This document shows positions 8,580 through 40,983 of a DNA stretch of 64,000 nt, piece after piece; position 1 is the first letter of the stretch, and every line of letters starts with the position of its first letter. Under the pieces are notes generated by a model, which made no database searches, was not told the origin of the DNA, and saw nothing but the letters and a program-made list of their open reading frames with translations. The stretch lies in the IMG/VR virus record IMGVR_UViG_3300044655_002046. One strand, 5' to 3'. A program made the position numbers and the translations under genes. This DNA comes from a virus.

Positions 8580-9476
8580 ATGAACGCTACACCACACACA
8601 ATAATATCTAGACAGGGCGTCGAACAGAATAGAAGACAGTTTAAAGAACAACCCTTCGGGGAAGATTTGGGCAACGACATAACCTTAGAAATGGTTGCTA
8701 TCCCAGGGGGAACTTTCCTGATGGGTTCACCGCCAAATGAGAAATATAGTTTTGATGATGAACACCCTCAACATCAAGTAAGTGTCCCACCCTTTTTCAT
8801 GGGTAAATACCCCATCACTCAGGCTCAGTGGAAAGAGGTTGCCTCTCGCACAGATTTAAAAGTTGAAAGAGACCTTGATCTCAACCCAGCCTATTTTAAA
8901 GACCGTCCCGATAGTGATCGCCGCCCCGTAGAACAAGTCAACTGGTACGATGCCGTTGAATTTTGTGCGAGATTATCGATACTGACGGGAAGGGAATACC
9001 GACTACCGAGTGAAGCGGAATGGGAATACGCTTGTCGTGCTGGAACTACTACCCCATTCTACTTTGGGGAAACCATTACGGGGGAATTGGCTAACTATGA
9101 CGCCAGCGAAACAACTCCCGTGGGACAATTTCCCCCCAATGCCTTCGGACTGTACGATATGCACGGCAATGTCTGGGAATGGTGCGCTGATACTTGGCAT
9201 GATAACTATGACGGTGCGCCTAGTGACGGTAGCGTTTGGCTTGATAATAATCAAGAGGAAAATATTGATGCTGAAAATAGTCTAGAATCTACTGAAAAAG
9301 CAGATTCGGCAGACTCACTGCAAGACGAGAATAATCTATATTCTGTCATGCGGGGCGGTTCCTGGGGCAACAATCTTAATCTCTGCCGTTCCGCGATTCG
9401 CTACGACACCTACCGCCGCGTCAACCGCTACTTCCTTAACGGTTTTCGAGTAGTCTGCGACGGAAGAACTCTCTAA
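8580..9476 (+). CDS. FGE-sulfatase (C-type lectin fold) protein, DGR-target-like #1
   Basis: [51 protein letters not shown]...CRSA.R...GFRVV; VR-like segment 9351-9459. Confidence 0.92.
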   Translation: MNATPHTIISRQGVEQNRRQFKEQPFGEDLGNDITLEMVAIPGGTFLMGSPPNEKYSFDDEHPQHQVSVPPFFMGKYPITQAQWKEVASRTDLKVERDLDLNPAYFKDRPDSDRRPVEQVNWYDAVEFCARLSILTGREYRLPSEAEWEYACRAGTTTPFYFGETITGELANYDASETTPVGQFPPNAFGLYDMHGNVWEWCADTWHDNYDGAPSDGSVWLDNNQEENIDAENSLESTEKADSADSLQDENNLYSVMRGGSWGNNLNLCRSAIRYDTYRRVNRYFLNGFRVVCDGRTL

Positions 9477-9575
9477 CCCTTTTTCTTGATGGAATAATAA
9501 TCAGCCGACCTTATCAGAGGTCGGCTGAGCCCTCTACTAGTAGAAGACGTATATACCGTACTACAGAGATTAAAA

Positions 9576-9938
9576 ATGATCGTTAACGCCACGCCTGATG
9601 TAATCACTCTCGTCTCTAGACAGGGGATCGAGCAAGACTCCAAGAACCAGTTTCTCGCTGAAACTGTTGAAATTCTCGAAGAGATCCCTCCGTCGGGGAT
9701 TCTCCCACGAGTTTCAATAGTCACGGGGGAAATCGATGGTATTGCCATCGAGTCCATTGTTTACGGGGAGATCGAGAAATTACCTAAATATCAAGAAGGA
9801 ATTTATTACATCGTGTTAGAGTTGGTGGCCGCGGCGGCCACTAAGATAGGTCGCACGGACTGCCTTGCCCCTGGAGGGTTAGTACGAGATAAATCTACTG
9901 GGACTGTTTTAGGGTGCCTGTTTTTACAAAAGCTCTAG
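9576..9938 (+). CDS. Conserved viral hypothetical protein (NxTP...PSG..RV...LP...IV...R.D..P..VR...G..GC type)
   Basis: 120-aa ORF; leader and N-terminus are paralogous to those of 8580..9476. Confidence 0.7.
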   Translation: MIVNATPDVITLVSRQGIEQDSKNQFLAETVEILEEIPPSGILPRVSIVTGEIDGIAIESIVYGEIEKLPKYQEGIYYIVLELVAAAATKIGRTDCLAPGGLVRDKSTGTVLGCLFLQKL

Positions 9939-9984
9939 ATTAGTTATCAGTTACCAGACAAATTACTTATCTAGGAGCAAAAAA

Positions 9985-10185
9985 ATGTCGTATCAAGATG
10001 AATTAATGAAAGATTGGGACATTGAAAGACAAGTACAAGCCTTAGAGGTAGTAGCTTGTGAGTATCCTCTTATTGCTGGATATAACCAAGAAGAGTTATT
10101 GCAGTTTGCAAAAACCGACAAAGATGCTTTTGACCTTTTTGCGGCGATAAAAATGGACACAGCAATTAAAAAATATGAAATGTAA
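9985..10185 (+). CDS. Hypothetical protein
   Basis: 66-aa ORF with AGGAG RBS. Confidence 0.6.
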   Translation: MSYQDELMKDWDIERQVQALEVVACEYPLIAGYNQEELLQFAKTDKDAFDLFAAIKMDTAIKKYEM

Positions 10186-10243
10186 TTAGCTGTCAGTTAT
10201 CGGTTATCGGTTATCAGTAAGCAAAACTATTAGGAGTAAGGCA

Positions 10244-10801
10244 ATGATTGAGATTGAAATGGTAGAGATTCCTGATGCAAGTTTTGCAATTGGGAAATAC
10301 CCAATAACTCAAGCGCAGTATGAAGCGGTAATGGAAACTAATCCATCTTGGTTTAAAAACAATCCCCAAAATCCTGTAGAAAATCTTTGTTGGTACGACG
10401 CTCGATCTTTTTGTCAGAAATTAAGTCAAATAACGGGCAACCTCTATCGCCTACCTTCTAATACAGAATGGGAATACGCGTGCCGTGCTGGTACTAACAC
10501 TCGCTTTTATTTCGGTGATGATGCTAATCAGTTAGGAGATTACGCTTGGTATTACGACAATTCTCAGAAGACAACTCATCCTGTTGGATTAAAAGTTCCC
10601 AATGCTTGGGGACTTTATGATATGCACGGCAATGTCTGGGAAATGACTCAAGAAGCCAAATTGCGGGGCGGTTCTTGGTACAGCGATCCGGATTACTGCT
10701 ATTCCGCTTATTATATCGTCCTCGCACGATTAGCAGAAAGCATAGGTTTTCGAATAGTTCGCGATTATAACAACTTGGGTGGATATAGGACAATTCTCTA
10801 A
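10244..10801 (+). CDS. Minimal FGE-sulfatase protein, DGR-target-like #2 (most diverged)
   Basis: [44 protein letters not shown]...GFRIV. Confidence 0.9.
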   Translation: MIEIEMVEIPDASFAIGKYPITQAQYEAVMETNPSWFKNNPQNPVENLCWYDARSFCQKLSQITGNLYRLPSNTEWEYACRAGTNTRFYFGDDANQLGDYAWYYDNSQKTTHPVGLKVPNAWGLYDMHGNVWEMTQEAKLRGGSWYSDPDYCYSAYYIVLARLAESIGFRIVRDYNNLGGYRTIL

Positions 10802-11000
10802 AACTGACAGAACCGCAAGAATTAGACTGGTACGAAACAATTTATCCGTTTCGATATTCAGGGGGCATCCATTATTTTATTCAAAAGAATCAAGGATGGA
10901 TAATAGATGAAATTGCTGTTTTTAAACACGTAGAAAAGTAATTGGTTATCAGTTATCAGTTATCAGTAATCAATATTTAATCGTATCAACAGAAGATATT

Positions 11001-11366
11001 ATGATGTCATTTGAAGAGCTTCAGAGTGTTGTATCAGCAGAAAAACAACTGCTATCATTTGAAGAGTTTCAGAACCAGGTCTTAGAGGCATTTAAATGCA
11101 CCAAAGAAGAGTGTGAGTTTTGGGATTCTTCTTATTATTTCTCGGCATTAATTAATTACACTAATGGCCATTATTTATTCTTTAGAGTCAGATATGTAAC
11201 AAACCCTGAAAACTATAATTATGGTCGTTGGATCGTTATAAAAGAATACGACAAAGCTTGTAGAGACATTTCAGATTCTTTGATGCAAGCAATAAAAGTT
11301 GTTGCACAAAAAACAAAAGAAAGCATCAAGGAAGAAAATGCTATCTTTGAAAAAATAGAAAAGTAA
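11001..11366 (+). CDS. Hypothetical protein, paralog of 11419..11784
   Basis: MxSFEELQ..VSAEKQLLSF.EFQ N-terminus shared with neighbour; near-identical leaders. Confidence 0.75.
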   Translation: MMSFEELQSVVSAEKQLLSFEEFQNQVLEAFKCTKEECEFWDSSYYFSALINYTNGHYLFFRVRYVTNPENYNYGRWIVIKEYDKACRDISDSLMQAIKVVAQKTKESIKEENAIFEKIEK

Positions 11367-11418
11367 TTAGTTATCAGTTATCAGTAATCAGGATTTAATC
11401 GTATCAACAGGAGATATT

Positions 11419-11784
11419 ATGCTGTCATTTGAGGAGCTTCAGAATAGCGTATCAGCAGAGAAACAACTGCTGTCATTTAAAGAATTTCAGAGTCAGGTCT
11501 TAGGGACATTTAATACCTCTAAAGAAGAATGTGATTTCTCTCCTTTATCATATGCCTTCTTAGCAGAAGTCAGCTACCATAAATACCAATGGTTACAATT
11601 TGAGGTTAGATACATAACAGACCCTGAAAACTGTTACTATGGCCAATGGATTTGTGTTAAAAGGTACAATAAGGCCTGTAAGACTATTTCGGATTCCTTA
11701 AATCAAGGAATAAAGGCCCTTGAGCGGCAGACAGAGGAGAGCATCAAGGAAGAAATCGGTGCTTTTAAACGCTTAGAGAATTAA
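11419..11784 (+). CDS. Hypothetical protein, tandem paralog of 11001..11366
   Basis: Same length (121 aa) and clearly alignable. Confidence 0.75.
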   Translation: MLSFEELQNSVSAEKQLLSFKEFQSQVLGTFNTSKEECDFSPLSYAFLAEVSYHKYQWLQFEVRYITDPENCYYGQWICVKRYNKACKTISDSLNQGIKALERQTEESIKEEIGAFKRLEN

Positions 11785-11914
11785 TCGGTTAGTAAAACTT
11801 ATTAGGAGTAAAACAATGAGCTAAAGATCAGGATCCATGTATGGGTCAACTCAGTGATGGGCACTACTACTGGGGAACCCCAGTAGTCCAATCCGAGTTG
11901 AAGAAAGTACCGTC

Positions 11915-12601
11915 TTGGGTACGGGAAAAGGAAGTATATTCCGTAGAAGAGTGTACCCGATGGAAAGAAGACCCTACGTAAGTAGCTTAATATTCTATGT
12001 AGTAGTACTGGCCGGCGCAGCTGCATTCGCTGGCGTAGCATTTAACCTATCGAAGGCAAGACCCTCTATTTGTGGTGCTAATAATGGCGCTAAGGTAACA
12101 GACCGCGTCAAGGTGATCACATCCACTGATCCCCTGTTAGTAGTTAACAAACCCGGTTGTTACGTATATGTACCCGTAGATGGGGCGCCGCCTGCAGTAG
12201 GCGAGCGGTTAACTATACGAGGTAGTATCAAGAATGGTAAGCTAGATGGCACCTATCGCCGTACTTATCTAGACTACGATAGCGAGAGTAGCCCTAGGCT
12301 CAAGAAGCGGTTCCTCCGGATAGAGGAGCCCCTACAAGAGACCGCGCCCGGTTACTATGCTATAACTAACCTCAGCCTACGCGTCGATGAGCTCGACGTA
12401 CGGGCTGTCCGCAATGCGCTACAACACGGCAGTGTCGTATACGCCATTATCGAGTGGGACCAGGGCATAGTGTATAGTATGACCCTGGTTAACGAGACTG
12501 AGTTCAATAGGGCAATGAATGCTAGATACAATACTCACCCTTATACTAGGAGAGGGGCCCCCGCCCATACCAGTGGGCCTATGCGATATAAGGCTCCATA
12601 A
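11915..12601 (+). CDS. Hypothetical membrane-anchored protein
   Basis: Hydrophobic stretch LIFYVVVLAGAAAFAGVAF; start uncertain. Confidence 0.6.
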   Translation: MGTGKGSIFRRRVYPMERRPYVSSLIFYVVVLAGAAAFAGVAFNLSKARPSICGANNGAKVTDRVKVITSTDPLLVVNKPGCYVYVPVDGAPPAVGERLTIRGSIKNGKLDGTYRRTYLDYDSESSPRLKKRFLRIEEPLQETAPGYYAITNLSLRVDELDVRAVRNALQHGSVVYAIIEWDQGIVYSMTLVNETEFNRAMNARYNTHPYTRRGAPAHTSGPMRYKAP

Positions 12602-12818
12602 TGGCGCCTACGTGATAATTAGAAGGGCCTGGGTTAATAGCACTACATACTCTAACCCTCTCCTACCCGACCATGCCTATGCCGTTCTACACGAGGACGC
12701 AGGCACTAGCAGATGCAGCGTACTTATATCAATTAAAGGAGTACGCAGCCGTAGGTTTATACGGATAACGGGTAAAGTTAGTAACGGCACGTTAATTAAC
12801 ATTAAAGTATTACCCTAG
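12519..12818 (+). CDS. Hypothetical protein
   Basis: 99-aa ORF, start uncertain, overlaps upstream gene. Confidence 0.4.
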   Translation: MLDTILTLILGEGPPPIPVGLCDIRLHNGAYVIIRRAWVNSTTYSNPLLPDHAYAVLHEDAGTSRCSVLISIKGVRSRRFIRITGKVSNGTLINIKVLP

Positions 12819-12831
12819 GCAGGTAAGTCGC

Positions 12832-13884
12832 ATGATAACAATGCTCATATTAGGGGCGCTGGCCCTCATAGTATCTCTGATACCATATCTGAGTATTGAG
12901 ATACTGCTAATGGCCCTTATGCCGCTTATTAGCGGCGATAACGCGATGGGCGTATTAGCTATAGTGATAATTGGCACTATAACCAGTGAGGCCCGCATGA
13001 GTAACCCGGCCTTTACTGGTATGCGAGTAGTTACCGCTACTAGCGGATATGACGCATCGGCTTCGCTGCTAATACGCATCAGCAGCCTAATCGGCGGCAT
13101 AGTAGCCAGTCTGGGCATAATAGTTATGGACCAATACCTCAGTGTATCTCATATGTGGATAACGCCATTAATGATGGCTATCTTCATATTAGTGCAGTGC
13201 TGGGGCCGCGCCAAGATGGTAGGTCTAGCTGTTATCACGGCTATCTTCCTGTGGTTCCTGCATAGTCAACCCCACGCCACTACTATCCTGGGTATGGGGG
13301 GCTACGTTATGGCCAGCCTAATATGCCCTGCTAGACGTAAGACTGAGGAGGACTGTAAGACGAGCAATGCACTGGGCATCACTATGTCACTAGGACCATT
13401 CTTCGCTATTGGGTTACCTGTAGCCGCAGCCGCCCCCGATGGTAAGACTGAGTCTTATCTCGAAGCGGTTGTGCGGGGCATATCACTAGGGCTAGTCATG
13501 TTAGGTAATAGTAGCGGGCGAGATGCCATGAGTTCCTATCTAGCCCTAACGGATGTAAACCAGTTGAATTGGCCTGCCTTCGTCGGCGCAGTAGTGTTAC
13601 TGACGCCCCTATTCTTATCAGCCTATTGGCTGACCATCTGGATGATAAGGAGCGCTATATGGCAGCGCTGGTTACACGCCGGCCCCACTCGCCTTATCAA
13701 TCTAGGTGTAACGGCGGCCGCGCTGGTCGTGCTGATAACATCAGCTCACGTTAGTGTTATATTCCTACCGGGGGCCGTATGTCTAGGACTGATGTATATG
13801 GTAGGGGAGCTATCAGGGGTAGATAAGATGCTACCCTTCCCCATACTAATAGTCGTCAGTTATATAAGCCAATGGGTCTCCTAG
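12832..13884 (+). CDS. Polytopic membrane protein, possibly TctA/DUF112-like
   Basis: About 9-10 hydrophobic segments; IVSLIPYL and ISSLIGG weakly resemble TctA motifs. Confidence 0.6.
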   Translation: MITMLILGALALIVSLIPYLSIEILLMALMPLISGDNAMGVLAIVIIGTITSEARMSNPAFTGMRVVTATSGYDASASLLIRISSLIGGIVASLGIIVMDQYLSVSHMWITPLMMAIFILVQCWGRAKMVGLAVITAIFLWFLHSQPHATTILGMGGYVMASLICPARRKTEEDCKTSNALGITMSLGPFFAIGLPVAAAAPDGKTESYLEAVVRGISLGLVMLGNSSGRDAMSSYLALTDVNQLNWPAFVGAVVLLTPLFLSAYWLTIWMIRSAIWQRWLHAGPTRLINLGVTAAALVVLITSAHVSVIFLPGAVCLGLMYMVGELSGVDKMLPFPILIVVSYISQWVS

Positions 13885-14459: not shown

Positions 14460-14684
14460 TTATCCAATTTATCTATATAGCCTGGCAATTAAACCACGCC
14501 ATCGAGAGCTAGTAGTCAGGGTGTACTTTGCATACCCGCAGATGATGAAGGCCCCCGCGGGGGGAACGAGCCGTCAAGTATGGCCATACCACGGAGCCCG
14601 CCGCATAGAAGAGTGGCCCTCTACCTAGTAGGTAGCCATCAAATAAGCAGGTATCATCCCATCAAATAATTAAGCAGGACTACC

Positions 14685-15227: not shown

Positions 15228-15299
15228 AGAGCTAGAGTAGCCTAGCCATCAATTACACGGCCCGCCGCTACTAGCGGGCCTCAGAGAGCGCGTAATAGA

Positions 15300-15942: not shown

Positions 15943-15967
15943 GTGCGTGCAACAGCGTGCAACAGCA

Positions 15968-19871: not shown

Positions 19872-20172
19872 CGCTGTAGACTTAATACTTGTAGTGTATA
19901 AGACGAGGCCCGCGCTATAATAAGAGTAGAGTCGGTATAATCCCTAATAAGACAGGCGGCCGACTCTACTACCCTGCATACGGTAAACTCTATCAAGAAT
20001 TAAGCTTAGGAGGAAGATAGTGATTTTATTGCTTTCGCAGATTGGTGGACTAGTCTTCTTTGTAATTCTGCTTCACAGACTGCTACATCGTTTCTATGTG
20101 GCAGCGTGGGACAGGAATGCAGAGAAACTACTCAGAAAAGGTATAAAGTAACAAACAGGACATCAGGACATC

Positions 20173-20322
20173 ATGACACAAGAACAACTATTAGCAGAGA
20201 ATACTGCATTAAAGCAGAGAGTAGAGGAGCTACAGCTAGAAATTAAGCAACTGAAGCAAGACGTGAAAGAGTTAACACTAAGCTTAGATTCAAAGACATA
20301 CTCTTCTCTTTATAGAGACTAG
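20173..20322 (+). CDS. 49-aa coiled-coil protein (MTQEQLLAENTALKQRVEELQLEIKQLKQDVKEL)
   Basis: AGGA RBS, heptad pattern. Confidence 0.55.
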   Translation: MTQEQLLAENTALKQRVEELQLEIKQLKQDVKELTLSLDSKTYSSLYRD

Positions 20323-20350
20323 TTATATAGAGGGGCCCCCGCCCCAACAA

Positions 20351-20423
20351 GCAGGATTGGCCGATAGGTGGAGGCACCGTCCTCATAAGACGGCTTAGAG
20401 CGGTTCGATTCCGCTATCCTGCA
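20351..20423 (+). tRNA. Second tRNA-CAT, diverged copy
   Basis: Acceptor GCAGGAT/ATCCTGC (compensatory change versus copy 1), identical anticodon arm. Confidence 0.92.
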
Positions 20424-20479
20424 TTCAGATAATATAGGCCCCCCTATTAGGAATACAATATACAATACTAAGGAGAGCC

Positions 20480-20770
20480 ATGAAAGTATTAACCTCTTAC
20501 GTTTTATATCCATCGCCAGACGAGCAGATCAACATTAAGAAGTACGCGTGCTTCACAAAGCACATCATCAGCGTAGAGATTGATGTGGTAATGTGACTTA
20601 ATAATGAGGCCCGCAGTGTCCAGCTGATGAAATACCTACTCAACACACTGAAGCTACAGTATACAGAACACGAGGATGGGTTTATGATCAGATTGCATAA
20701 GTTAGTATATACTGATGGCTCTACGGCACTAATAGTGCCAACGGCATATACAGATAAACTACTAAATTAA
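20480..20770 (+). pseudogene. ORF interrupted by in-frame TGA at 20594
   Basis: AGGAG RBS and ATG; 38 codons, TGA, then 57 open codons to TAA. Confidence 0.5.
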
Positions 20771-20890
20771 TCAGAGCACAGTGTAGTATATCACAAGGGG
20801 CCCGCCTCACTCTCAACTACATACAGCTCTAATAGACTACGTCTATTATCAATCACATCCCTGCTGGCAGGGATGTATATCAATAGCTAA

Positions 20891-25416: not shown

Positions 25417-26247
25417 ATGACTTCTATTAATTTTTACGAAAGAACAGCGCTTATCAAACGTATCGAAAACAATCTCAATCAAATTAACCAAAGATATTTT
25501 GAGGGAGGCCACGTGATATTATCAGTGACTGATAACGGTGATTACCTCACTGTCAAAAAACAAGGTGTTTACTTAGCAGGTTATGACGCTCAAAAGCTTT
25601 TTGACGCTCTAGAAGATTTTAGTGAAGAAGTTCGAGAGTTTCTTTTTCCTTATGACCTGTGGGACTACTTAAATCATTGCAAGTACACGCCAGAAAATCA
25701 GGAATCTGACAACGAGTTAAAGACCGATGATAAATTATCGCTTTCTGAAAAAACACATCTCAACAAGTACATTAAACAACTGCAAGAAGAGTATCAAGAG
25801 CTAAAAAGAGAAGATGGACAATTATTTGAGCAATTAACAGCTTTAAGTGAAACTGTAACTCAATTATGTATCCGTGTCTATAAACTAGAAAACAATCAAA
25901 CAGAGCCTCAACCAGAACCTAAACCGACGGCTAAGCGACCTAAATATAAATTACCAGAAAACTTTGCTGACTACCAGCAAGAGTGCGATGACTTAATTGA
26001 TGAACTATCCTGCTTTTACAATATCAAAAAAGGTAAATGGGGAAAAGACATTCTCCAATTTATCCTTACTCCAGTGAGAAGCACAACACATCCATATCCT
26101 AATAAGTGGAAAGCAGGGCTATATTTACAGCCTGGAGAGTGGACGTGGACAATTGACAAAGTAAGTATGTCTGATCCCGATGAATGGAAAGAGCATTTTA
26201 TAAATGTTTATGACTTTGCTGTCAGGTTGGGGATAGAGATTAGTTAG
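25417..26247 (+). CDS. Hypothetical protein with central coiled coil
   Basis: 276-aa ORF, GAGG RBS. Confidence 0.7.
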   Translation: MTSINFYERTALIKRIENNLNQINQRYFEGGHVILSVTDNGDYLTVKKQGVYLAGYDAQKLFDALEDFSEEVREFLFPYDLWDYLNHCKYTPENQESDNELKTDDKLSLSEKTHLNKYIKQLQEEYQELKREDGQLFEQLTALSETVTQLCIRVYKLENNQTEPQPEPKPTAKRPKYKLPENFADYQQECDDLIDELSCFYNIKKGKWGKDILQFILTPVRSTTHPYPNKWKAGLYLQPGEWTWTIDKVSMSDPDEWKEHFINVYDFAVRLGIEIS

Positions 26248-26317
26248 ATGCCAGTTATCAGTTATCAGTTATCAGTTATCATTCGTCAAAAACAAAACAC
26301 ACACACAGGAGAAAAAA

Positions 26318-26872
26318 ATGACAATTAAAATTGAAATGGTAGAGGTACCATTAAGTCAGGATATCGGTAGTTTTGCAATTGGGAAATATCCAATTACTCA
26401 GGCGCAATATGAAGCAGTAATGGGAACCAATCCCTCTCAGTTTCAAAATAATTCCCAAAATCCAGTAGAAAAGGTTAGTTGGGATGACGCTCAAGCCTTT
26501 TGTCAAAAATTGAGTCAAATAACTGGCAAAACCTATCGTCTACCGACGGAAGCGGAATGGGAGTATGCTTGCCGTGCAGGAACTAATACTAACTATTATT
26601 TCGGAGATGATGCCAATCAGTTAGGAGATTACGCTTGGTATTACGCAAATTCTCAGGGGACAACTCATCCTGTGGGACAGAAAAAACCCAATGCTTGGGG
26701 ATTATACGATATATATGGCAATGTTTGGGAATGGTGTCAAAAGGATTTGAGTATGCGGGGCGGTTCTTTTTGCTTCTATCCTAATAACTGCCGTTCCACG
26801 ACTCGCTACAGTAGCATCCGCCCCAGCTTCCACGACTACGATATAGGTTTTCGGGTAGTCTGTGACAATTAG
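26318..26872 (+). CDS. Minimal FGE-sulfatase protein, DGR-target-like #3
   Basis: FGE motifs; VR-like segment 26756-26860 ending GGTTTTCGGGTAGTCTGTGACAATTAG. Confidence 0.92.
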   Translation: MTIKIEMVEVPLSQDIGSFAIGKYPITQAQYEAVMGTNPSQFQNNSQNPVEKVSWDDAQAFCQKLSQITGKTYRLPTEAEWEYACRAGTNTNYYFGDDANQLGDYAWYYANSQGTTHPVGQKKPNAWGLYDIYGNVWEWCQKDLSMRGGSFCFYPNNCRSTTRYSSIRPSFHDYDIGFRVVCDN

Positions 26873-27247: not shown

Positions 27248-28036
27248 GTGGTGATTAAAATTGAAATGGTAGAGGTACCAGCAAGTCAAGATCAAAAAAT
27301 CGGTAGTTTTGAGATTGGTAAATACCCAGTGACTCAGGCACAATATGAAGCGGTAATGGGAGTTAATCCATCTTATTTTCAAGGTAATCCTCAAAATCCA
27401 GATCCGCAAAATCCAGTAGAAATGGTTAGTTGGGACGACGCTCAAGCCTTTTGCATAAAATTAAATGGAATGACTGGCCATAAGTATCGTCTCCCCACAC
27501 AAGAGGAATGGGAATATGCCTGTCGTGCGGGGACTACTACTGACTATTATTTTGGAGATGATGCTAATCAATTAGGAGATTACGCATGGTACGAAGACAA
27601 CTCTGGGCTGATAACCTATCCTGTAGGCGCAGCAAAATCACTTAATGCTTGGCTGATAACCCATGCTGTAGGGCAAAAATTACCTAATGCTTGGGGACTC
27701 TATGACATGAGTGGCAACGTCTGGGAATGGTGTATTGATAAGTGGCTGCGGGGCGGTTCCTGGAACGATCCTCCTTATTGCTGCCGTTCCGCGAATCGCG
27801 ACAGCAGCCCTCCCAGCGGGCTCCGCTTCAACAATGTCGGTTTTCGGGTAGCACAAACTATTAGACCAACACTATTAGCTGAGGAGATGTGGGAAGCACA
27901 GCTGCCTGAACCTTATAAAGATATGATTCTATCTGAAGTAGTAGAATATCTAGATAATCTACAGACTAAAGAGGAAAAAGAGAAGTTTATAACTGCTATA
28001 TACTGGTCAGGGTTTCAAGCGTGTCTGGATGACTAA
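27248..28036 (+). CDS. FGE-sulfatase protein with C-terminal helical extension, DGR-target-like #4
   Basis: FGE motifs; VR 27749-27848; tail [15 protein letters not shown]... shared with #5. Confidence 0.92.
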   Translation: MVIKIEMVEVPASQDQKIGSFEIGKYPVTQAQYEAVMGVNPSYFQGNPQNPDPQNPVEMVSWDDAQAFCIKLNGMTGHKYRLPTQEEWEYACRAGTTTDYYFGDDANQLGDYAWYEDNSGLITYPVGAAKSLNAWLITHAVGQKLPNAWGLYDMSGNVWEWCIDKWLRGGSWNDPPYCCRSANRDSSPPSGLRFNNVGFRVAQTIRPTLLAEEMWEAQLPEPYKDMILSEVVEYLDNLQTKEEKEKFITAIYWSGFQACLDD

Positions 28037-28108: not shown

Positions 28109-28828
28109 ATGACAATTACAATGGTAGAGATACCGGCAAGTCAAGAAATTAAAAGTTTTAGGATTGGCAGATATCCTGTGACTCAGGTACAATATCAAGC
28201 AGTAATGGGAGTTAATCCCTCTTACTTTCAAGGTAATCCTCAAAATCCAGTAGAAAATGTCAGCTATGATGATGCTGAAACTTTTTGCCAGAAATTAAGT
28301 AAAGCAACAGGGAAACAATATCGTTTACCAACGGAAGCTGAATGGGAATATGCCTGTCGTGCGGAGACAACTAGCGACTATTATGGAGATTACGCTTGGT
28401 ATATAGGAAATTCTCAGCATACAACTCATCCTGTAGGGCAGAAGAAGCCCAATGCTTGGGGTCTTTATGATATGCGCGGCAACGTCTGGGAATGGTGCCA
28501 GCAGGTTGTAATACGGGGCGGTTCCTGGAACACCAATCCTCGTAACTACCGTTCTATAATTCGCAACGACGATGTCCGCCGCGACATCCGCGACATCCGC
28601 TACGACAGTATCGGTTTTCGAGTGGCAGAAACTATTAGACCAACACTATTAGCTGAAGAGATGTGGGAAGCACAGTTAGATGAACCTCATAAAGATATGA
28701 TCCTATCTGAAGTAGTAGAATACCTAGAGACTCTACAGACTAAAGAGGAAAAAGAAAAGCTTCTGACTGCTATATACTGGTCTGGTTTTCAAACGTCTCT
28801 GGATCACATAGATGATTACAGTTCTTAA
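28109..28828 (+). CDS. FGE-sulfatase protein with C-terminal extension, DGR-target-like #5
   Basis: FGE motifs; VR 28514-28621 with a 9-nt duplication (GACATCCGC x2). Confidence 0.92.
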
Positions 28829-28890: not shown

Positions 28891-29547
28891 ATGAGTGATG
28901 CGGATTTTATTCGAGAAGTTGAAGAACTGTACCTGCGTCTTGCTAATGCAGATACAGATAATCTGGTTGAGTTAACTAAACTTGCGGGCTTAGACCCTAA
29001 ACTCGCAATTCAGATTGAAATGGTAAAAGTTCCTGACGCAACTTTTGCAATAGGAAAATATCCTGTGACTCAGGTACAATATCAAGCAGTAATGGGAGTT
29101 AATCCCTCTTACTTTCAAGGTAATCCTCAAAATCCAGTAGAAAATGTCAGCTATGATGATGCTGAAACTTTTTGTCAGAAATTGAGTCAAATAACAGGGA
29201 AAACCTATCGCCTACCGACGGAAGCGGAATGGGAATATGCTTGTCGTGCAGGTACAACCACTGATTATTATTTCGGAGATAATGCCAATCAGTTAGGAGA
29301 TTACGCTTGGTACGAAGACAACTCTGGGATGATGACCCATCCTGTAGGGCAAAAATTACCTAATGCTTGGGGGTTGTACGATATGCACGGCAACGTCTGG
29401 GAATGGTGCGCCGATACTTGGCACAATAAGTGTCTGCGGGGCGGTTCCTGGGGCTTCTTTCCATGCCGCTCCGCGATTGGCATCGGCAACTACCGTTGCG
29501 ACGACCGCGACATCACTTTCGGTTTTCGGGTAGTCTGTGACAATTAG
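28891..29547 (+). CDS. FGE-sulfatase protein with short N-terminal helical module, DGR-target-like #6
   Basis: FGE motifs; VR 29437-29529; ends GGTTTTCGGGTAGTCTGTGACAATTAG as in #3. Confidence 0.92.
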   Translation: MSDADFIREVEELYLRLANADTDNLVELTKLAGLDPKLAIQIEMVKVPDATFAIGKYPVTQVQYQAVMGVNPSYFQGNPQNPVENVSYDDAETFCQKLSQITGKTYRLPTEAEWEYACRAGTTTDYYFGDNANQLGDYAWYEDNSGMMTHPVGQKLPNAWGLYDMHGNVWEWCADTWHNKCLRGGSWGFFPCRSAIGIGNYRCDDRDITFGFRVVCDN

Positions 29548-29624
29548 TTACTAATCAGGTATTTATTAGTTATCAGTTATCAGTTATCAGTTATAATACT
29601 AAATATAACTATTAAGAACAATTT

Positions 29625-32560: not shown

Positions 32561-32632
32561 CGTATTTAGAAGTCTGATTAGTTATTAGTTATCAGTTATC
32601 AGTAAAAATTAACACAATTAGGGAGTAAACCA

Positions 32633-33641: not shown

Positions 33642-33881
33642 ATGTCTGTGTTTCCAGTTTTCAAGATAATCAGGATGCTTCGATCTCCAAAAAATGACAT
33701 GACAGATTTTATTTTTTTAGGGCAAAAATATCGATTAATAGCAAGACCAATAAAATACTGGAAGGATTTCTCGTGGTTTCGTGGTAAAAAGGTTTTCTAT
33801 CAATGCCCGTGGTTAACGTTTTTCTCTTTTCCTAGCGTCAATCCTAGCGTTTTGCTAGACAATAAAAGTAATTGCTACTAA
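33642..33881 (+). CDS. Hypothetical protein followed by a family A 3' remnant (about 33880-34030)
   Basis: GGAG RBS; downstream DNA aligns with 32900-33045. Confidence 0.5.
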   Translation: MSVFPVFKIIRMLRSPKNDMTDFIFLGQKYRLIARPIKYWKDFSWFRGKKVFYQCPWLTFFSFPSVNPSVLLDNKSNCY

Positions 33882-34053
33882 CAGGTGCATCAATACCTAA
33901 ACTTCTCAAAGAAAACTATGGTCTTTTTATACAATTTCTTGTTATAGCTTCTAGGTATTATGTAAGAAGTAATGTCGGTGAATCTGGTCCCTATTATTGG
34001 GACCACGAATAAAGTAAAACAGGCAAAAATAACCTAAAACAGGAGTAACATCA

Positions 34054-34482
34054 ATGGATATTCAACGCGCAATATTGGTTAGAAACCAATACAATAGCTT
34101 ACCTACCGAAGCTAAACAATACGTTGACGCTTTAGTCAATGAAGCAAAACAGAATCCTAAGTCAAAATACTTAGAACAATTCTATAAAGACGCAATTAAA
34201 GGTAGTGTAATGGATACATACGTACAATTAAAATACAATGATGTCAATGATGCTAATGATGTCAAAAAAGATTGGATTTCGTTTGTAGCTTTTAAAGCTT
34301 GGTTATTTTTTGCCACATTTTTAACAGGCGTTTCTACCCCTAAACAGTTGAAAAAAAATTCTAACTTGTTTATGCTTTCTATAACTATAGCCTCTAATTT
34401 TGTAGTAGAGGGTGATTATAAAGAAATATACGGAACGTCACATATCTGGGGACTAACTTACAATCCTAATGTACTTAACTAA
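34054..34482 (+). CDS. Hypothetical protein, paralog family A
   Basis: YNSLPTEAKQYVDALVNEAKQ...LTGVSTPKQLKKNSNLF. Confidence 0.7.
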   Translation: MDIQRAILVRNQYNSLPTEAKQYVDALVNEAKQNPKSKYLEQFYKDAIKGSVMDTYVQLKYNDVNDANDVKKDWISFVAFKAWLFFATFLTGVSTPKQLKKNSNLFMLSITIASNFVVEGDYKEIYGTSHIWGLTYNPNVLN

Positions 34483-34556
34483 AACATTGCAAATATCCGA
34501 CATTATATGGGGAGCTACAGACTACTAGTTCTTATCATTTATTAGGGAGTAAATAA

Positions 34557-35411
34557 ATGAGCATTAAACCGCAACTTTTCAAGCAATCGTATATGAAACT
34601 TAAAGGCACTATTCGGCTATTTTTAGAAGGTTCAGAAGAGGGCTTAAAGTACCTAGCAGATTTACATCAATCGGGGGAATTGCAAGCTCTTCTCAATGAA
34701 CTTAAATCAGACAATATGCACGAAATTATCGTCACAAAAACAAAGCTCACTACAGATGCAAAAGTTATTGAAAAAGCCGAATTAATTAAGGCAATTCGAG
34801 AGGGAACAATCGATAAGACAACTCTACAACAAGTTGATTTAAGTGGGGCTAATCTGTGGGGGGCTTTCTTGAGTGATGCTAACCTGAGTGAGGCTTACCT
34901 GAGTGGGGCTAACCTGTGGGGGGCCTTCCTGAAAGAGGCTGATCTGAGTGGGGCTATCCTGAGTGGGGCTAACCTGAGTGGGGCTTTCCTGAAAGAGGCT
35001 GACCTGTGGGGGGCCTTCCTAAGAGAGGCTGACCTGAGTGGGGCTGACCTGAGAGGGGCTACTCTGAGTAGGGCTAACCTGAGAGGGGCTACTCTGAGTG
35101 GGGCTAACCTGTGGGGGGCCTTCTTAAGAGAGGCTGACCTGAGTGAGACCATTCTGAGTGGGGCTAACCTAAGAGGGGCTAACCTAAGAGGGGCCATTCT
35201 GAGTGGAGCTAACCTAAGAGGGGCTATTCTGAGTGGGGCTAACCTAAGAGGGGCTAACCTAAGAGGGGCTATTCTGAGTGGGGCTGACCTGAGTGGGGCT
35301 GATGTTGAAAACGCTATCTTTATCGATGCAGCGGGGATCACCTCTGAACAAGAACAGGATTTAATTCGACAAGGGGCAATTCTATTGCGAAATTCTAATG
35401 TACCTAACTAA
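34557..35411 (+). CDS. Pentapeptide repeat protein
   Basis: About 30 A(D/N)L(S/R/W)(G/E) repeats; N-terminal MKLKGTIRLFLEGSEEGL module shared with the 55588 gene. Confidence 0.95.
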   Translation: MSIKPQLFKQSYMKLKGTIRLFLEGSEEGLKYLADLHQSGELQALLNELKSDNMHEIIVTKTKLTTDAKVIEKAELIKAIREGTIDKTTLQQVDLSGANLWGAFLSDANLSEAYLSGANLWGAFLKEADLSGAILSGANLSGAFLKEADLWGAFLREADLSGADLRGATLSRANLRGATLSGANLWGAFLREADLSETILSGANLRGANLRGAILSGANLRGAILSGANLRGANLRGAILSGADLSGADVENAIFIDAAGITSEQEQDLIRQGAILLRNSNVPN

Positions 35412-36081: not shown

Positions 36082-36445
36082 GGCAATTGATATCGTGAAG
36101 ACATGGGCCTATCAGAATCTAAGCCTAGATTCTGATAATAAATTTATCGTAGTTCATATCAATCGATCTAGTTACGTAGTAAGCGACAATATTAGAGAAG
36201 ACCGGCCTGATGATAATGACGGTGATATGTACTTCCTATCATATATTCATGGTGATGTAGATGTCTCTATCTTCCTGGGTACTAATGGAGATGTAATTGT
36301 CGCTCGTGATAGAATCGATGAAAAGGACGACCCCTCTTTATTAATCGGCAGTATAACCGATATTATAGATGGTAAGGCCCTCTTTCCTATAAGCCGACTA
36401 GATAATCATGACCCCAGAACAGATTCAGAAACTACGCGACAATAA
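36071..36445 (+). CDS. Hypothetical protein
   Basis: 124-aa ORF, overlapping start/stop. Confidence 0.6.
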   Translation: MQDKAIDIVKTWAYQNLSLDSDNKFIVVHINRSSYVVSDNIREDRPDDNDGDMYFLSYIHGDVDVSIFLGTNGDVIVARDRIDEKDDPSLLIGSITDIIDGKALFPISRLDNHDPRTDSETTRQ

Positions 36446-36656
36446 TTGGACCCTAGATAACCTCCAGGGCGTATCAGATAAAGAACTCGATTGGGTACAG
36501 AGCGTACTGGCCCTTCGAGAATACTACGAGGAGACTGGTAGAGAGTTAACCCAGAGCAATATAGACTGGATTAACACCTTTCTCCTTTCTAACTACGAGG
36601 AGAGCGACGCTGATCTACCTCTCGAGCAGCCCGAGCTGCCTCAAGAGCAAACTTAG
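36408..36656 (+). CDS. Hypothetical acidic protein
   Basis: 82-aa ORF. Confidence 0.6.
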   Translation: MTPEQIQKLRDNNWTLDNLQGVSDKELDWVQSVLALREYYEETGRELTQSNIDWINTFLLSNYEESDADLPLEQPELPQEQT

Positions 36657-36825
36657 CCGCCTTATTAATAACACGTGCTCTCTCCTGCTTAGTTAGATTA
36701 CCGTGGCCCCGCAGTTTAAGAGCACTCAATGCGCTGCGCTTATCGAATATAGGGAATTTATCCCCTACTGTACCGTACTGGGCCCGCGCTTCTGCTGTTA
36801 CATTGCCCTTCTTGGTTCTCTTCAT
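36589..36825 (-). CDS. Small basic hypothetical protein (KFPIFDKRSALSAL motif)
   Basis: 78-aa ORF; FPI.D...A..AL motif of a kind seen in small phage proteins. Confidence 0.6.
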   Translation of the reverse strand: MKRTKKGNVTAEARAQYGTVGDKFPIFDKRSALSALKLRGHGNLTKQERARVINKAAKFALEAARAAREVDQRRSPRS

Positions 36826-36953
36826 ATGCGTTGTTGACTAGATATGGTTATGCTGACAGATGGGCGGGCCCTAATAGTAAACTTAGTAGTAGTCCCAATA
36901 TAGAAAATTCTATATTGGAAAACATTTAATTATCTTGAATGTCAAGGTAAAGA

Positions 36954-36998
36954 CCGTTCGGCTGAGCTCACGACCGAAGCCCTCGCTAAAGTGAGGGG
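36954..36998. repeat. REP-like element (CCGTTCGGCTGAGCTCACGACCGAAGCCC)
   Basis: Closely matches the core of the element at 45004-45093. Confidence 0.6.
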
Positions 36999-37072
36999 AG
37001 TGTTAATTAAAGTGCTACAATATTAATGCCCTCACGTCAACAAGGGACTAACCATTTTATTCGACGGCGATT

Positions 37073-37366
37073 TTGGAGATGACTATGAGTAAGGCAATGG
37101 ATGTGACCAGCACTGCAGACGCACAAACTGGTAAGGTTTCGGACATCAAAGTTGTTGGCAACTGTGATGCATTCCAGCTTCTCTTTAAAGCCAGCAGCGA
37201 GGAACAAGGTTGGATGAAGTCGTGTAAAGCAATGGAGACACCAGGTGGATGCGTCGTGCAAGTGACGACACAGCAGAACGACAATGTGGCTGAAGCGTTG
37301 ACGTTTGTTCCAGGTGTCAAGATTGCAGAAGACATCAACGGCGGACGAAAGCTCGTTTCGCTGTAG
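37073..37366 (+). CDS. Conserved phage hypothetical protein
   Basis: KASS..QGWMKS.KAME..GCVVQVTTQQ...AEALTFVPGV; composition differs from flanks. Confidence 0.7.
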   Translation: MEMTMSKAMDVTSTADAQTGKVSDIKVVGNCDAFQLLFKASSEEQGWMKSCKAMETPGGCVVQVTTQQNDNVAEALTFVPGVKIAEDINGGRKLVSL

Positions 37367-37508
37367 TCTTTGGTGTTTGTTTGATGGGCGGCATCTTTGG
37401 GTGTCGTCCGTCGAACAAGGAGTCAATATAGCTAATTCTAGTTTACAGCCTTTTGCCAGCTTGTTTAAATTGCTAGATTGTGCTAAAATTAAATGAAGTG
37501 GAGAATTT

Positions 37509-38981
37509 ATGCCGTACATCCAAACTAATCTAAAACTCACTATTAGTCAATATCATTATTTGCGCGAGCTAACAGCTGGCATGGATAGTGATAGTCGACG
37601 TTTATTCATCCACACGTTTTTGTGCCAGCGCCAGATGCGTGCTAAGTCTGATTACCACGCGTGGAAGGGAGTACCACTGCCACGTAAGAGCTTCATTCAC
37701 GTCTACTGTAGAAATTATAGCTGGGAGAGCGTAAAACCGTTTATGACGCGGGCCCCCTACTACGCTAAGGAAGGAATCTGCTTCCGCTACCGTATCCACG
37801 AGCACATCATCGATACCTTCATTGAGAAGGGAGAGGATTTACTACTGAGCCCCTCTCGACTACAGGATCAGTGGTTCGTTGATGCAGATGGCCGCCCGCT
37901 TCCTAAACTTAATAGGCCGCTTAGTAGCGCACCGTCGACACAGGTTGATTTGGGCTATGGCATCGCGTGGCTGATACGTCAACGAGATCGGATAGAGCGT
38001 ACTCGCGATAGTCTGAGTGATGTTGAGCTGGCTAGTAAACGGGCCCGCTACCTTCATAACCTAAACTGCTATCAGGGTATACTCGAGCGCGTAACGAGTA
38101 TCGACTACACGAAACGTCAGGCAGAGTACTCGCAAGAACTAACCCAACCTCACGAGGGGCTCCGTGTATACGAGAAGGGAGGCGGCCTCCAGGGTGCTAG
38201 TAGGAACTTCAGAGAGGTGCTGCTAATATCCAGCCCTGTGATTAACTATGATGTCGTCAAGTGCCACGCGACGATTGCCCATCATGAGATGGAGAAGCTA
38301 GGTATTAGTTCCCATCTGGATGAGATGCTATCGGGCCGTGTGAGTTCTCCTGACCCCCTACTGTCTGTAGGCACTGTGAAGACAGCCGTGTTAGCAGTAA
38401 TCAATGGGGCCCGGCTCGTTAAGCGTCTCAGTACCCGCTTCACTATACCGCGATTAGTACTAGAAGAGCCACTCCTAGCTGATAAGGATACAACCATTAA
38501 GTCACGGGCCCTCGCTCGCCTAGTAAGATACCTTAAAGGCATAGCTACCAGCATAGCGAAGTGGTCTAAACTAATACCCAAGCACGAGAAGATAGCAGCC
38601 ATGTCCGCTCTACTTCAACGTATAGAAGTAGACAGTCTACGAGACATCCACGACCTCGCATCCAACAATCAGCACGACGGTGCCCTGATCCATAACTCCA
38701 TCAACGTCAGTGAGGTAGAATCGGGCTACCTACTCGTGCAACCCAAACCCATCTCCTCACCCGACCCCGAGGAGTCCGTCACCGTGTGCGGCCGCCAGAT
38801 CGAGATCATACCATTCAACGCAGAGTGTGCCAACATCGCGGACATCATCATGGGCGCGGGTACCCGGCTCCAGGCCACAACAGGATACGGAAACTGGGCC
38901 CCCACCCCCCATAAGAATACCGTTAGTAGATCAGATAGCAGCGCTGATACATCGAATCTCAGCGCTGATGATAGTAATTAA
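37509..38981 (+). CDS. Divergent family A/T7-like palm polymerase-related protein (TV-Pol-like)
   Basis: Motif A-like VINYDVVKCH, motif B-like VKTAVLAVINGA, motif C-like QHDGALI, in the expected order. Confidence 0.55.
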   Translation: MPYIQTNLKLTISQYHYLRELTAGMDSDSRRLFIHTFLCQRQMRAKSDYHAWKGVPLPRKSFIHVYCRNYSWESVKPFMTRAPYYAKEGICFRYRIHEHIIDTFIEKGEDLLLSPSRLQDQWFVDADGRPLPKLNRPLSSAPSTQVDLGYGIAWLIRQRDRIERTRDSLSDVELASKRARYLHNLNCYQGILERVTSIDYTKRQAEYSQELTQPHEGLRVYEKGGGLQGASRNFREVLLISSPVINYDVVKCHATIAHHEMEKLGISSHLDEMLSGRVSSPDPLLSVGTVKTAVLAVINGARLVKRLSTRFTIPRLVLEEPLLADKDTTIKSRALARLVRYLKGIATSIAKWSKLIPKHEKIAAMSALLQRIEVDSLRDIHDLASNNQHDGALIHNSINVSEVESGYLLVQPKPISSPDPEESVTVCGRQIEIIPFNAECANIADIIMGAGTRLQATTGYGNWAPTPHKNTVSRSDSSADTSNLSADDSN

Positions 38982-39564
38982 TACCCGTACAAGGGAGACG
39001 TGTGCCTTGATTCAACAATACAATAACCTATCTATAGAATTCATTGATGTTTATGTTAGCGCTAGGGATGTTCTCAGAGCTCTCAATCTCTCTGACGATG
39101 CTCTAGAACAGGTCACTAGTCATAACAAGCTTATGAAGAACTCAACAATGGTGCTAGAACCAGCTGGTGTATATCAGCTGGTTCTTATCAATGATGAGAT
39201 AGACTTCTGGGACTGGTACAGCGACGAAGCCCTGGCTGTTGCTAAGGAGACGATGTTGCGTATGAGTAATTACATGAAGGCTCGTCGTATCCTCAAGGAT
39301 ATCATGGATGCCCCCGATGCTGTCAAGCTGCCCCGCATAGTTGATCAACTAATCGCAGCACGACAGTATAAGGATGGTATATCTAAAACTGCTGCCATAC
39401 TGTATGTAAAGCAGCAGGTAGAGAATAAGTTGAAGGAGCGCGGCCACCCTCATCCTCCTCTTATATTAACGTTCTCTGATACACACATCGATATAAAAGG
39501 CGAAGTTAAGTACGAGGACGCGTTAACCATATGCTACGAGATAGCAGGAGAATATATTGCTTGA
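38827..39564 (+). CDS. Bro-N/antirepressor-like DNA-binding protein
   Basis: VYVSARDVLRAL...EPAGVYQLVL; start uncertain. Confidence 0.55.
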   Translation: MPTSRTSSWARVPGSRPQQDTETGPPPPIRIPLVDQIAALIHRISALMIVINTRTRETCALIQQYNNLSIEFIDVYVSARDVLRALNLSDDALEQVTSHNKLMKNSTMVLEPAGVYQLVLINDEIDFWDWYSDEALAVAKETMLRMSNYMKARRILKDIMDAPDAVKLPRIVDQLIAARQYKDGISKTAAILYVKQQVENKLKERGHPHPPLILTFSDTHIDIKGEVKYEDALTICYEIAGEYIA

Positions 39565-40048
39565 GACTGTATTGGCGCTGCCCGCCATTAGACAAGACAG
39601 AACAGCACTACCCTTCGTCTTCCCAGAGTTATCCCTCTATACTCTCCTGAGTATAGAAGATATCATTCCTGACATCACTATCAACGTAGTGGCTACCAGA
39701 CCGTGGGCCCAGGGCACACACTATAGCACTATGTATTGGACTGTTCTGGTAGTGCGTTATCAGAACAGTCCCTTCTTAGTAGTGGGCCGTCGTTACGTGA
39801 CAGATGAACTTAGTCCTAATGAAACGGCCCTCCGCTATGTAATAGACCAGGACCTCTATCGTACGGCTATCAACTACGCACTACAGCAGGAGACAGAGGA
39901 GGTAGTCTTTACTAATAAGGAGCGGCCCCTCGATAAGGAGAAGGCCCAGGCCTTTCATCGTGTAGGTGGAGAGATACGCTTTATAGAGGCCGATGCTCTC
40001 AGTTGCACCATTGGGGACATCAATACATTACTTGACATCTTATTATGA
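39557..40048 (+). CDS. Hypothetical protein
   Basis: 163-aa ORF with TTG start, operonic. Confidence 0.55.
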   Translation: MLETVLALPAIRQDRTALPFVFPELSLYTLLSIEDIIPDITINVVATRPWAQGTHYSTMYWTVLVVRYQNSPFLVVGRRYVTDELSPNETALRYVIDQDLYRTAINYALQQETEEVVFTNKERPLDKEKAQAFHRVGGEIRFIEADALSCTIGDINTLLDILL

Positions 40049-40983
40049 AACATCAAAATATGCAATCAAAGAAAGTTCCAGTCTCAGTTAAAACGTTGCA
40101 AAATTTAGAATTGTTATCATTTAACTTTGAGGTGGTGCAAGTAAATGTTAAGGGTGAGCAAATCAAAAAAGAGTCAAAGCAGTCCCAATGTTTCAGGGAA
40201 AATTTGGGCAACGGCATCACCTTAGAAATGGTTGCCATCCCGAGGGGGACATTCCTGATGGGTTCACCGCAAGACGAGAAAGATAGTTACAATGATGAAC
40301 GTCCTCAACATGAGGTTAACATCCCCCCCTTTTTCATGGGCAAGTATCCCATCACCCAGACACAGTGGAGAGCAATTGCCTCTCGCACAGATTTGAAAGT
40401 AAAAAAAGACCTTGATCCTGATCCCTCCCACTTTAAAGATAGGGAAGGATCATACGCGCGCCGAGATAGACCCGTGGAACAAGTCAACTGGTACGATGCC
40501 GTCGAGTTCTGCGCGAGATTATCTAAATTAACGGGAGGGGAATACCGACTTCCCAGTGAAGCGGAATGGGAATATGCCTGTAGAGCGGGGACAACAACCG
40601 CCTTTTACTTTGGGGAAACCATTACGGGGGAATTGGCTAACTATGATGCCAGCAAAACCTACGCTGATGAACCCAAAGGAGAATATCTAAAAGAAACGAC
40701 TCCCGTGGGACAGTTTCCGCCCAATGCCTTCGGTTTGTACGATATGCACGGCAATGTCTGGGAATGGTGCGCCGATACCTGGCACGATAACTACGGTGCG
40801 CCAACGGATGGCAGTGCCTGGATAGAAAATGGGGATCATAATTGTTCTCCTCGGCGGGGCGGTTCTTGGTTCAGCTATTCCCGTCGCTGCCGTTCTGCTT
40901 ATCGCAGCAATAGCGACAGCCGCGACAGCCTCAACAGCAGCCTCGGTTTTCGGGTGGTGTGCGGTGCTGGGAGGGCTCTGTAG
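40045..40983 (+). CDS. FGE-sulfatase protein, DGR-target-like #7 (long type, close to #1)
   Basis: LELLSFNFEVVQVN..G..IK...F.ENLGNGITLEMVAIP...; VR 40855-40953. Confidence 0.93.
   Translation: MKHQNMQSKKVPVSVKTLQNLELLSFNFEVVQVNVKGEQIKKESKQSQCFRENLGNGITLEMVAIPRGTFLMGSPQDEKDSYNDERPQHEVNIPPFFMGKYPITQTQWRAIASRTDLKVKKDLDPDPSHFKDREGSYARRDRPVEQVNWYDAVEFCARLSKLTGGEYRLPSEAEWEYACRAGTTTAFYFGETITGELANYDASKTYADEPKGEYLKETTPVGQFPPNAFGLYDMHGNVWEWCADTWHDNYGAPTDGSAWIENGDHNCSPRRGGSWFSYSRRCRSAYRSNSDSRDSLNSSLGFRVVCGAGRAL

Follow-up and report, generated by a model that had tools for sequence, protein, structure and literature searches.

Variable regions of lectin-fold genes in a Microcystis phage match templates of host diversity-generating retroelements

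Diversity-generating retroelements (DGRs) are understood as self-contained systems, with the reverse transcriptase (RT), the template repeat (TR) and the target genes in one genome. The best comparisons for the genes described here are the DGR of phage BPP-1 and those DGRs of cyanobacteria that act on remote targets (Vallota-Eastman et al., 2020; PMC7517822). In BPP-1, the initiation of mutagenic homing (IMH) element together with a hairpin was all that a heterologous gene needed to become a target of the DGR machinery, with at least 8 bp of 5' homology (Guo et al., 2011; PMC3240598). Here we analyze a 64,000-nucleotide stretch of viral DNA, the IMG/VR record IMGVR_UViG_3300044655_002046 (hereafter the window, meaning the whole stretch), which megablast places in the Ma-LMM01/MaMV group of Microcystis myophages (genus Fukuivirus) at 85–90% identity over common parts. 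The window carries seven genes, g1 to g7, for a C-type lectin (CLec) domain of the formylglycine-generating enzyme (FGE) type, each with a DGR-like variable region (VR). Our comparisons show that VR tracts on these RT-less phage genomes have been replaced by sequence that matches host TRs at all non-adenine bases and is randomised at adenines. We propose, with a probability of roughly 55%, that host DGRs act in trans on targets carried by the phage and rewrite them in the course of infection.

The preliminary description of this DNA, made from its letters and predicted translations, had recognised seven FGE/CLec genes with the VR signatures of DGR targets, and this picture stands. All seven open reading frames (ORFs) match PF03781 (FGE-sulfatase) in a Pfam profile search, with E-values from 1e-32 to 9e-61, and a 15-nt motif coding for RGGSW occurs in the window exactly seven times (0.11 expected by chance), once in each gene and nowhere else. 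Recounting the codons after the W and before GFR returned the lengths given earlier: 25 in g1, g3, g4 and g7, 28 in g5 with its 9-nt duplication, 23 in g6, and 22 in g2, the copy that had been singled out as diverged. The variable codons are, as had been claimed, NNC or NNT, interspersed with fixed blocks. The CLec/FGE-fold domain has its VR at the 3' end, and the VR stops 18–48 nt before the stop codon in g1, g2, g3, g6 and g7; g4 and g5 have 189–207 nt of additional coding sequence 3' of the VR. The window had been said to lack an RT and a template repeat, and indeed it yielded no A-rich second copy, RT or Avd. No TR was found on this part of the replicon, the RGGSW anchor motif being confined in the window to the seven VR copies.

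Matching templates were found in the host. We searched 17 Microcystis genomes for a pattern consisting of the VR 5' anchor followed by AAY codons, which returned many VR-like sites and a few A-rich copies (29–33% A); these A-rich TR copies directly adjoin RT ORFs of 352–357 amino acids. On contig 2 of one genome (G015), the order is a GUN4+FGE variable protein, bAvd, PIN, an insertion sequence (IS) transposase, RT, TR and a second FGE variable protein, which is a canonical DGR with an IS insertion. The template that the preliminary description had back-projected from the window is only three bases (in codons 1 and 11) away from this real TR beside the RT. Its suggestion to look in Microcystis genomes for a TR near a DGR RT was likewise rewarded by a matching TR next to RT and bAvd. 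The genus holds at least four TR families, some of them mosaic. The host TRs inspected (L202, positions 201–336, and L189, L190, L192 and L193) are mosaics of few modules: a first codon GGC or TAC, either GCG ATT or GCT TAC, and two 3' flank types. In this search an RT of DGR-like size (352–369 amino acids) was seen in 5 of the 17 genomes, and VR-like genes in all 17. A scan of a metagenome collection for a 24-nt TR core gave eight records only, with TRs that match those known from Microcystis genomes, and no new TR variant that would better fit g3–g5 emerged from it. The A-rich TRs in the host's DGR cassettes (composed of variable protein, bAvd, RT and TR) are the cognate templates of the phage VRs; the phage itself has no such templates.

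Each window VR was then set against the best of the sampled host TRs, and differences at adenine and at other sites were compared by Fisher test. The freshest VR is that of g1 (8580–9476, plus strand; VR from RGGS to GFR at 9351–9449, variable core at 9366–9440): relative to the TR of G015 contig 2, 12 of 28 adenine sites differ versus 2 of 68 other sites (p = 3e-6). The VR of g7 (40045–40983, plus strand; VR at 40855–40953) differs from the host TR of a second genome (G005) at 16 of 30 adenine and 8 of 66 other sites, and that of g6 at 14/24 and 5/66, with a 6-nt gap. The counts are 18/28 adenine versus 8/68 other sites in g4, 14/28 versus 11/68 in g3, 11/28 versus 9/68 in g5 (with a 9-nt insertion relative to the TR) and 11/25 versus 13/62, with gaps, in g2; a second comparison of g2 with the best TR gave 15 non-adenine mismatches plus gaps. 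Adenine bias is significant in seven of seven copies (p from 5e-7 to 0.03) and weakest in g2, g5 and g3; the expectation that mismatches would fall at TR adenines therefore held for every copy. On these counts the window holds one fresh VR (g1), two intermediate ones (g7 and g6) and four decayed ones (g3, g4, g5 and g2). Copies g2 to g5 look like decaying relics and not like live targets, and we read the g2 VR as a fossil.

The sequence 3' of the VR partly follows this gradation. A block of about 27 nt that is common to host VRs and the TR is mostly kept in g1 and g7, amounts to about 10 nt in g3 and g6, and is missing from g2, g4 and g5. In g7, the flank has a single base different from the host VR flank before the stop codon; in g1, the flank (9450–9528, plus strand) resembles that of host VRs, and not that of the TR, as far as the stop codon and the opening bases of the 3' untranslated region (UTR). 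The longest TR-like 3' flanks belong to g1 and g7, both among the least decayed copies, and the copies that lost the flank or gained a tail (g2, g4 and g5) are the most decayed. The link between flank retention and decay is nevertheless loose, because g3 and g6 keep the same short flank yet differ in decay. A hairpin with a 12-bp stem lies at 9501–9528, about 50 nt 3' of the g1 VR (DNA fold z = -2.5), and no comparable element was seen at host targets.

Comparison of phage genomes with each other reveals recent VR turnover. L212, an IMG/VR contig that is syntenic with the window and about 90% identical overall, is identical to it across 9186–10044 bar 22 positions, all of them within 9366–9438. 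Nineteen of the 22 differences fall at TR adenines and three at other sites (Fisher p = 1.3e-10), every adenine-site change is at codon position 1 or 2, and the 786 flanking nucleotides hold none. A second backbone, represented by L211, L209 and L230, repeats the pattern: 0–2 differences in the 300 nt upstream, and pairwise VR differences at 11–17 adenine and 0–2 other sites. Because L211 carries the g1 allele of the window with no non-adenine mismatches, the two such mismatches in the window's g1 should be later point mutations. Among g7 orthologs in IMG/VR there are several VR alleles with a common 5' part that differ mainly in the 3' half, and the Ma-LMM01 gene gp062 is 94% identical to its MaMV orthologs upstream of the VR and 72% identical within it. 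Recent adenine-specific variation is established for the g1 orthologs; it is suggestive for g7, and we do not extend it to g2–g6.

These comparisons bear directly on the view that the VRs are fossils, that is, domains captured once in an already diversified state, now inert, and differing through ordinary mutation and selection. Such a history would suit g2, g3, g4 and g5, with their 9–15 non-adenine mismatches, indels or lost 3' flank, and it would suit the stability of several VR alleles across diverged contigs and isolates. A burst of 22 differences within 73 nt, most of them at TR adenines and with clean flanks, is however beyond ordinary mutation, and the same asymmetry recurs on the near-identical backbones of L211, L209 and L230. 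Some phage VRs moreover agree with a host TR at all 75 non-adenine sites, on scaffolds about 20% off the host genes. For g1 and its orthologs the fossil view is already contradicted by these two sets of comparisons, and we hold it to be very unlikely overall.

Tract replacement extends beyond the relatives of Ma-LMM01. Many IMG/VR contigs have in common with the window only FGE genes and TTATCAG repeats. They include a second Microcystis-type lineage (L026–L061 and L065–L084; for example G019, 90,564 bp) with genomes of about 90 kb that CheckV estimates to be 89–100% complete, encoding a tail assembly protein (PHROG match), ribonucleotide reductase (RNR), ThyX and a helicase, and no RT. The viral nature of this lineage rests on the CheckV estimates, the PHROG tail-assembly matches and the phage-type replication and nucleotide-metabolism genes; a 20.5-kb stretch of one member (L053) had no megablast match in the phage collection. 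At one orthologous locus of the lineage, between flanks that are 90–94% identical, lie VR tracts from four different host TR families. The tracts start at the Arg codon before GGS and end 9–12 nt past the GFR codons; the nine bases that follow these codons (GGTTTTCGG) go along with the TR type, and phage-specific sequence returns at the 3' junction after just 3–4 shared bases. Related phage contigs have VRs that differ from a host TR at 14/30 and 15/30 adenines and at 0/75 other sites.

How such tracts reach phage genomes can be explained in another way. Diversification may take place only in the host variable-protein genes, with the phages repeatedly importing diversified VR cassettes from the host or from each other by recombination over short stretches of conserved sequence on either side of the VR. 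In line with import, phage scaffolds and host variable-protein genes are 75–85% identical, g1 and g7 have 3' flanks of the host VR type, and the host TRs are themselves mosaic. One g1 VR allele occurs on three different phage backbones (window, L211 and L208) with different 3' flanks and 5–10% divergence, and L216 and L218 have a VR of the G015 type on a g7-like scaffold. Import would on the other hand require crossovers within 10–29 nt of homology, and at least twice, as both g1 alleles (window and L212) keep phage-specific border bases. The variable core is bordered by these single-nucleotide polymorphisms 17 nt away on its upstream side and about 10 nt away on its downstream side; with them retained, the homology left between phage and host genes is too short for ordinary recombination. 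In the 90-kb lineage, the 3' segment that moves with the TR type ends in the 3–4 nt of homology to phage sequence noted above. Finally, no allele is common to the 32 host and 98 viral VR alleles compared, the nearest pair being 10 bases apart, in what is a low-power test. We regard import as the sole route, the main rival to rewriting in trans, as unlikely, if well short of negligible.

Several observations, including the alleles and contigs just mentioned, also weigh against rewriting in trans. MaMV-DC and MaMV-DL01 have one VR in common despite 3.8% upstream divergence. The occurrence of the same g1 allele on three backbones implies that VR cassettes also move or persist by recombination, and alleles common to diverged backbones in both cases imply that turnover is episodic at best. 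In the last 330 nt or so of L218 (IMG/VR contig 3300044640_003163, positions 3721–4054), the g7-like scaffold is followed by a VR of host type and the 3' UTR of the host; this contig may be a true phage-host recombinant or an assembly chimera across the common VR flank. Most window copies have 5–15 non-adenine mismatches to any sampled TR, the TRs being drawn from only 17 Microcystis genomes, and g3 is as decayed as g2, g4 and g5 despite the short stretch of TR-like 3' flank that it retains. A search 3' of the phage VRs and of the host VRs found no canonical GC hairpin with a GRNA loop. Right after the variable core, a non-TR base (CGA) is retained in both g1 alleles, which means that the tract ends short of the canonical IMH junction, unless the donor TR carried that base. 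That rewriting takes place on the phage DNA itself is what we infer. VR turnover is real but episodic.

A third source of diversification would be a DGR, with RT and TR, that this phage encodes outside the window or that a co-infecting phage brings along. The window is part of a genome that extends at least 124 kb further, RT-bearing DGRs are common in other phages, and the host DGR RT matches 174 phage records. Among the listed matches (12 of the 174 records) and the ten commonest of 36 organism names, however, there is no Microcystis phage or cyanophage. RVT_1 had no match in five complete Fukuivirus genomes (Ma-LMM01, MaMV-DL01, MaMV-DC, MaMV-DH01 and MaMV-CH01), nor in three IMG/VR genomes of 83–91 kb and one of 107 kb. 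With the host DGR RT and Avd as queries, neither the window nor 1.39 Mb of related viral loci gave a match, and a DGR-clade RT with Avd on the replicon of the targets was found in none of the window, the five complete relatives and these loci. None of 2.9 million IMG/VR contigs contains the 24-nt TR core, and the TRs that do match sit in host loci beside multidomain host variable proteins. The preliminary description had offered three origins for the diversity: a host DGR acting in trans, a distant phage RT, and capture in a diversified state. The first is now favored and the third stays as a rival; the second is unlikely, and a DGR carried by this or a co-infecting phage seems to us very improbable.

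We therefore return to rewriting by host DGRs, where mutagenic retrohoming in trans on phage DNA would be the simplest cause of the VR tract replacement. During infection, the host RT, Avd and TR RNA would produce adenine-mutagenised complementary DNA (cDNA), which would replace the VR of those phage copies that retain enough TR-matching flank; in the window these would be g1 and perhaps g7. Copies that have no 3' flank or that have a C-terminal tail (g2, g4 and g5) would no longer be rewritten. Host transcription was 99.8% unchanged during Ma-LMM01 infection (PMC5780444), and with a phage that barely alters it, host DGR components could be expected to persist in the infected cell. A more inclusive proposal joins both lineages: two lytic Microcystis phage lineages without a mutator of their own would use the host DGR on early-expressed lectin domains that are stripped copies of host DGR-diversified sensors, and a single template would then supply the binding diversity of virus and host alike. 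We put this forward tentatively, as somewhat short of an even chance.

The proteins themselves point to a host origin. By BLAST, the DNA of all seven genes is 75–85% identical to that of the FGE domains in variable proteins of the host (about 78% for g1), an identity from which we conclude that a capture of host sequence followed by duplication probably gave rise to them. Since g1 and g7 are homologous to host genes both upstream of the VR and in the host VR-type 3' flank, the family would descend from captured host target domains minus their N-terminal signalling modules, and the flanks of these two genes speak for at least one capture from a host gene. The seven genes encode stand-alone copies of the FGE-type CLec domain that forms the C-terminal end of DGR variable proteins in Microcystis, and their last 75–84 variable bases are genuine VRs of the DGR type. 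A catalytic formylglycine-generating enzyme was considered and rejected: scores against the NCBIfam equivalogs (PvdO, EgtB, GldK and others) are far under their cut-offs (for example, 164–181 versus 500 bits), and the FGE match denotes the fold only. By sequence, g1 matches the Treponema denticola variable protein TvpA (PDB 2Y3C) with an E-value of 1e-18 over the conserved core, g1 residues 136–212 only.

Some clues to function come from Ma-LMM01, which has two genes of the same FGE family, gp062 (20022–20852) and gp037 (33766–34506). Transcriptome sequencing (RNA-seq) and quantitative reverse-transcription PCR identified gp062 as an early gene and placed gp037 in a separate small expression cluster; early genes including gp062 are stated in that paper to be without database homologs (PMC5780444). 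The RefSeq label 'kinase' given to both genes is unsupported, as domain searches with their homologs in the window found FGE-sulfatase only and nothing of a kinase; the label probably derives from host multidomain kinase-FGE proteins. Because the gene at the position of g1 is early in Ma-LMM01, we consider an intracellular binding role during host takeover more likely for the proteins than one at the tips of tail fibres, by analogy with that phage. That the phage copies act as decoys or mimics of host sensors is pure speculation.

The seven genes, all on the plus strand, differ in form. The long forms are g1, a stand-alone protein of 298 amino acids (PF03781 E-value 5e-55) that lies 3' of a giant ORF at the position of gp062, in a gene order matching gp064-gp063-gp062 of Ma-LMM01, and g7, of 312 amino acids (E-value 9e-61), whose host-like 3' flank runs to the stop codon. 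A search of contigs by encoded protein found no exact copy of the g1 protein. Short forms are g2 (10244–10801; 185 amino acids; E-value 1e-32 over profile positions 35–191 only; degenerate VR at 10664–10753) and g3 (26318–26872; 184 amino acids; E-value 4e-39; VR at 26756–26854), the latter with F in place of the W of RGGSW. Copy g4 (27248–28036; 262 amino acids; E-value 2e-36) has its VR at 27749–27847, identical in the IMG/VR contig L062; after the VR, about 63 amino acids of helical tail make up its C-terminus. Copy g5 (28109–28828; 239 amino acids; VR at 28514–28621) has a 9-nt tandem duplication at 28583–28600 and a C-terminal tail of the g4 type. In both copies, the tail after the VR makes the VR internal. 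The two tails (27848–28036 and 28622–28828), of about 63 amino acids, have 87% DNA identity (repeat family D11), and a tail of this type also follows the VR in Ma-LMM01 gp037 and MaMV-DC ORF40. Copy g6 (28891–29547; 218 amino acids; E-value 1e-37) has an N-terminal extension of about 45 amino acids and a VR (29437–29529) that is 6 nt shorter.

Runs of the heptamer TTATCAG (repeat family D7) occupy intergenic positions around the FGE genes and adjoining small genes, at 10181–10240, 10937–10996, 11355–11414, 26239–26312, 29561–29620 and 32573–32632, and are also found 3' of FGE genes in the unrelated 90-kb phage contigs; they may be cassette borders or regulatory sites. Elsewhere in the window, the RNR large subunit (59020–61980) contains a LAGLIDADG domain at residues 562–617, which suggests an intein or a homing endonuclease insertion. 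An ORF of 575 amino acids at 50010–51737 combines OrfB_IS605 and Cas12f1-like TNB domains and is TnpB-like. Two ORFs, at 34557–35411 and 55387–56436, consist of 15-nt periodic repeats (family D1) compatible with pentapeptide-repeat proteins, the annotation used for MaMV-DC.

In a literature search of incomplete coverage, we found no paper linking Ma-LMM01-like phages to DGRs and none in which host DGRs act on phage genes. If our proposal is true, targeted hypermutation crosses the virus-host boundary, which would be a new route of phage adaptation and a natural case of DGR trans-targeting. The virus would then depend on the genotype of its host strain, because an intact DGR is limited to part of the Microcystis strains. 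A function would also follow for early genes in the main family of Microcystis phages in culture, which is of relevance to the ecology of harmful blooms. The idea is directly testable, as Ma-LMM01 and MaMV isolates are in culture. Even under import, host sensors and phage early genes that repeatedly swap hypervariable cassettes would make a notable arms-race pattern.

Comparison with known systems places the window genes as follows. TvpA belongs with g1 in one structural class of DGR variable proteins, but as a distant relative, and it is a lipoprotein of a bacterium whose own genome carries the DGR that diversifies it. In BPP-1 (Mtd, the tail-fibre tip; PMC3240598), as here, a phage gene has a CLec-fold variable end that is changed at template adenines. 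BPP-1, however, has its own RT, Avd and TR beside a late structural receptor-binding target, whereas the machinery proposed here is that of the host, the Ma-LMM01 gene at the g1 position is early, and no GC hairpin with a GRNA loop lies 3' of the VR. Among the Fukuivirus genes, gp062, which like g1 lies 3' of the giant ORF, is 81% identical to g7 and 73.5% to g1 in the DNA upstream of the VR, and the number of FGE copies is two in Ma-LMM01, two to four in MaMV isolates and seven in the window. Unlike the cyanobacterial DGRs with remote targets (PMC7517822), the window has its targets on a separate replicon, that of a lytic phage without RT, Avd or TR, and its copies, several of them decayed, are stand-alone and lack the kinase or GUN4-like N-terminal modules of host variable proteins. 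With those systems it has in common the FGE-sulfatase/CLec domain, the RGGSW and GFR anchors, the VR at the 3' end (in g1, g2, g3, g6 and g7), changes at AAC and AAT codons, and several paralogous targets per TR family, some of them far from the RT. Judged by its VRs, its TR and its adenine bias, the family qualifies as a set of DGR targets; it departs from the usual definition in that RT and TR are not on the same replicon, and in its workings it appears to be like a cyanobacterial DGR with remote targets.

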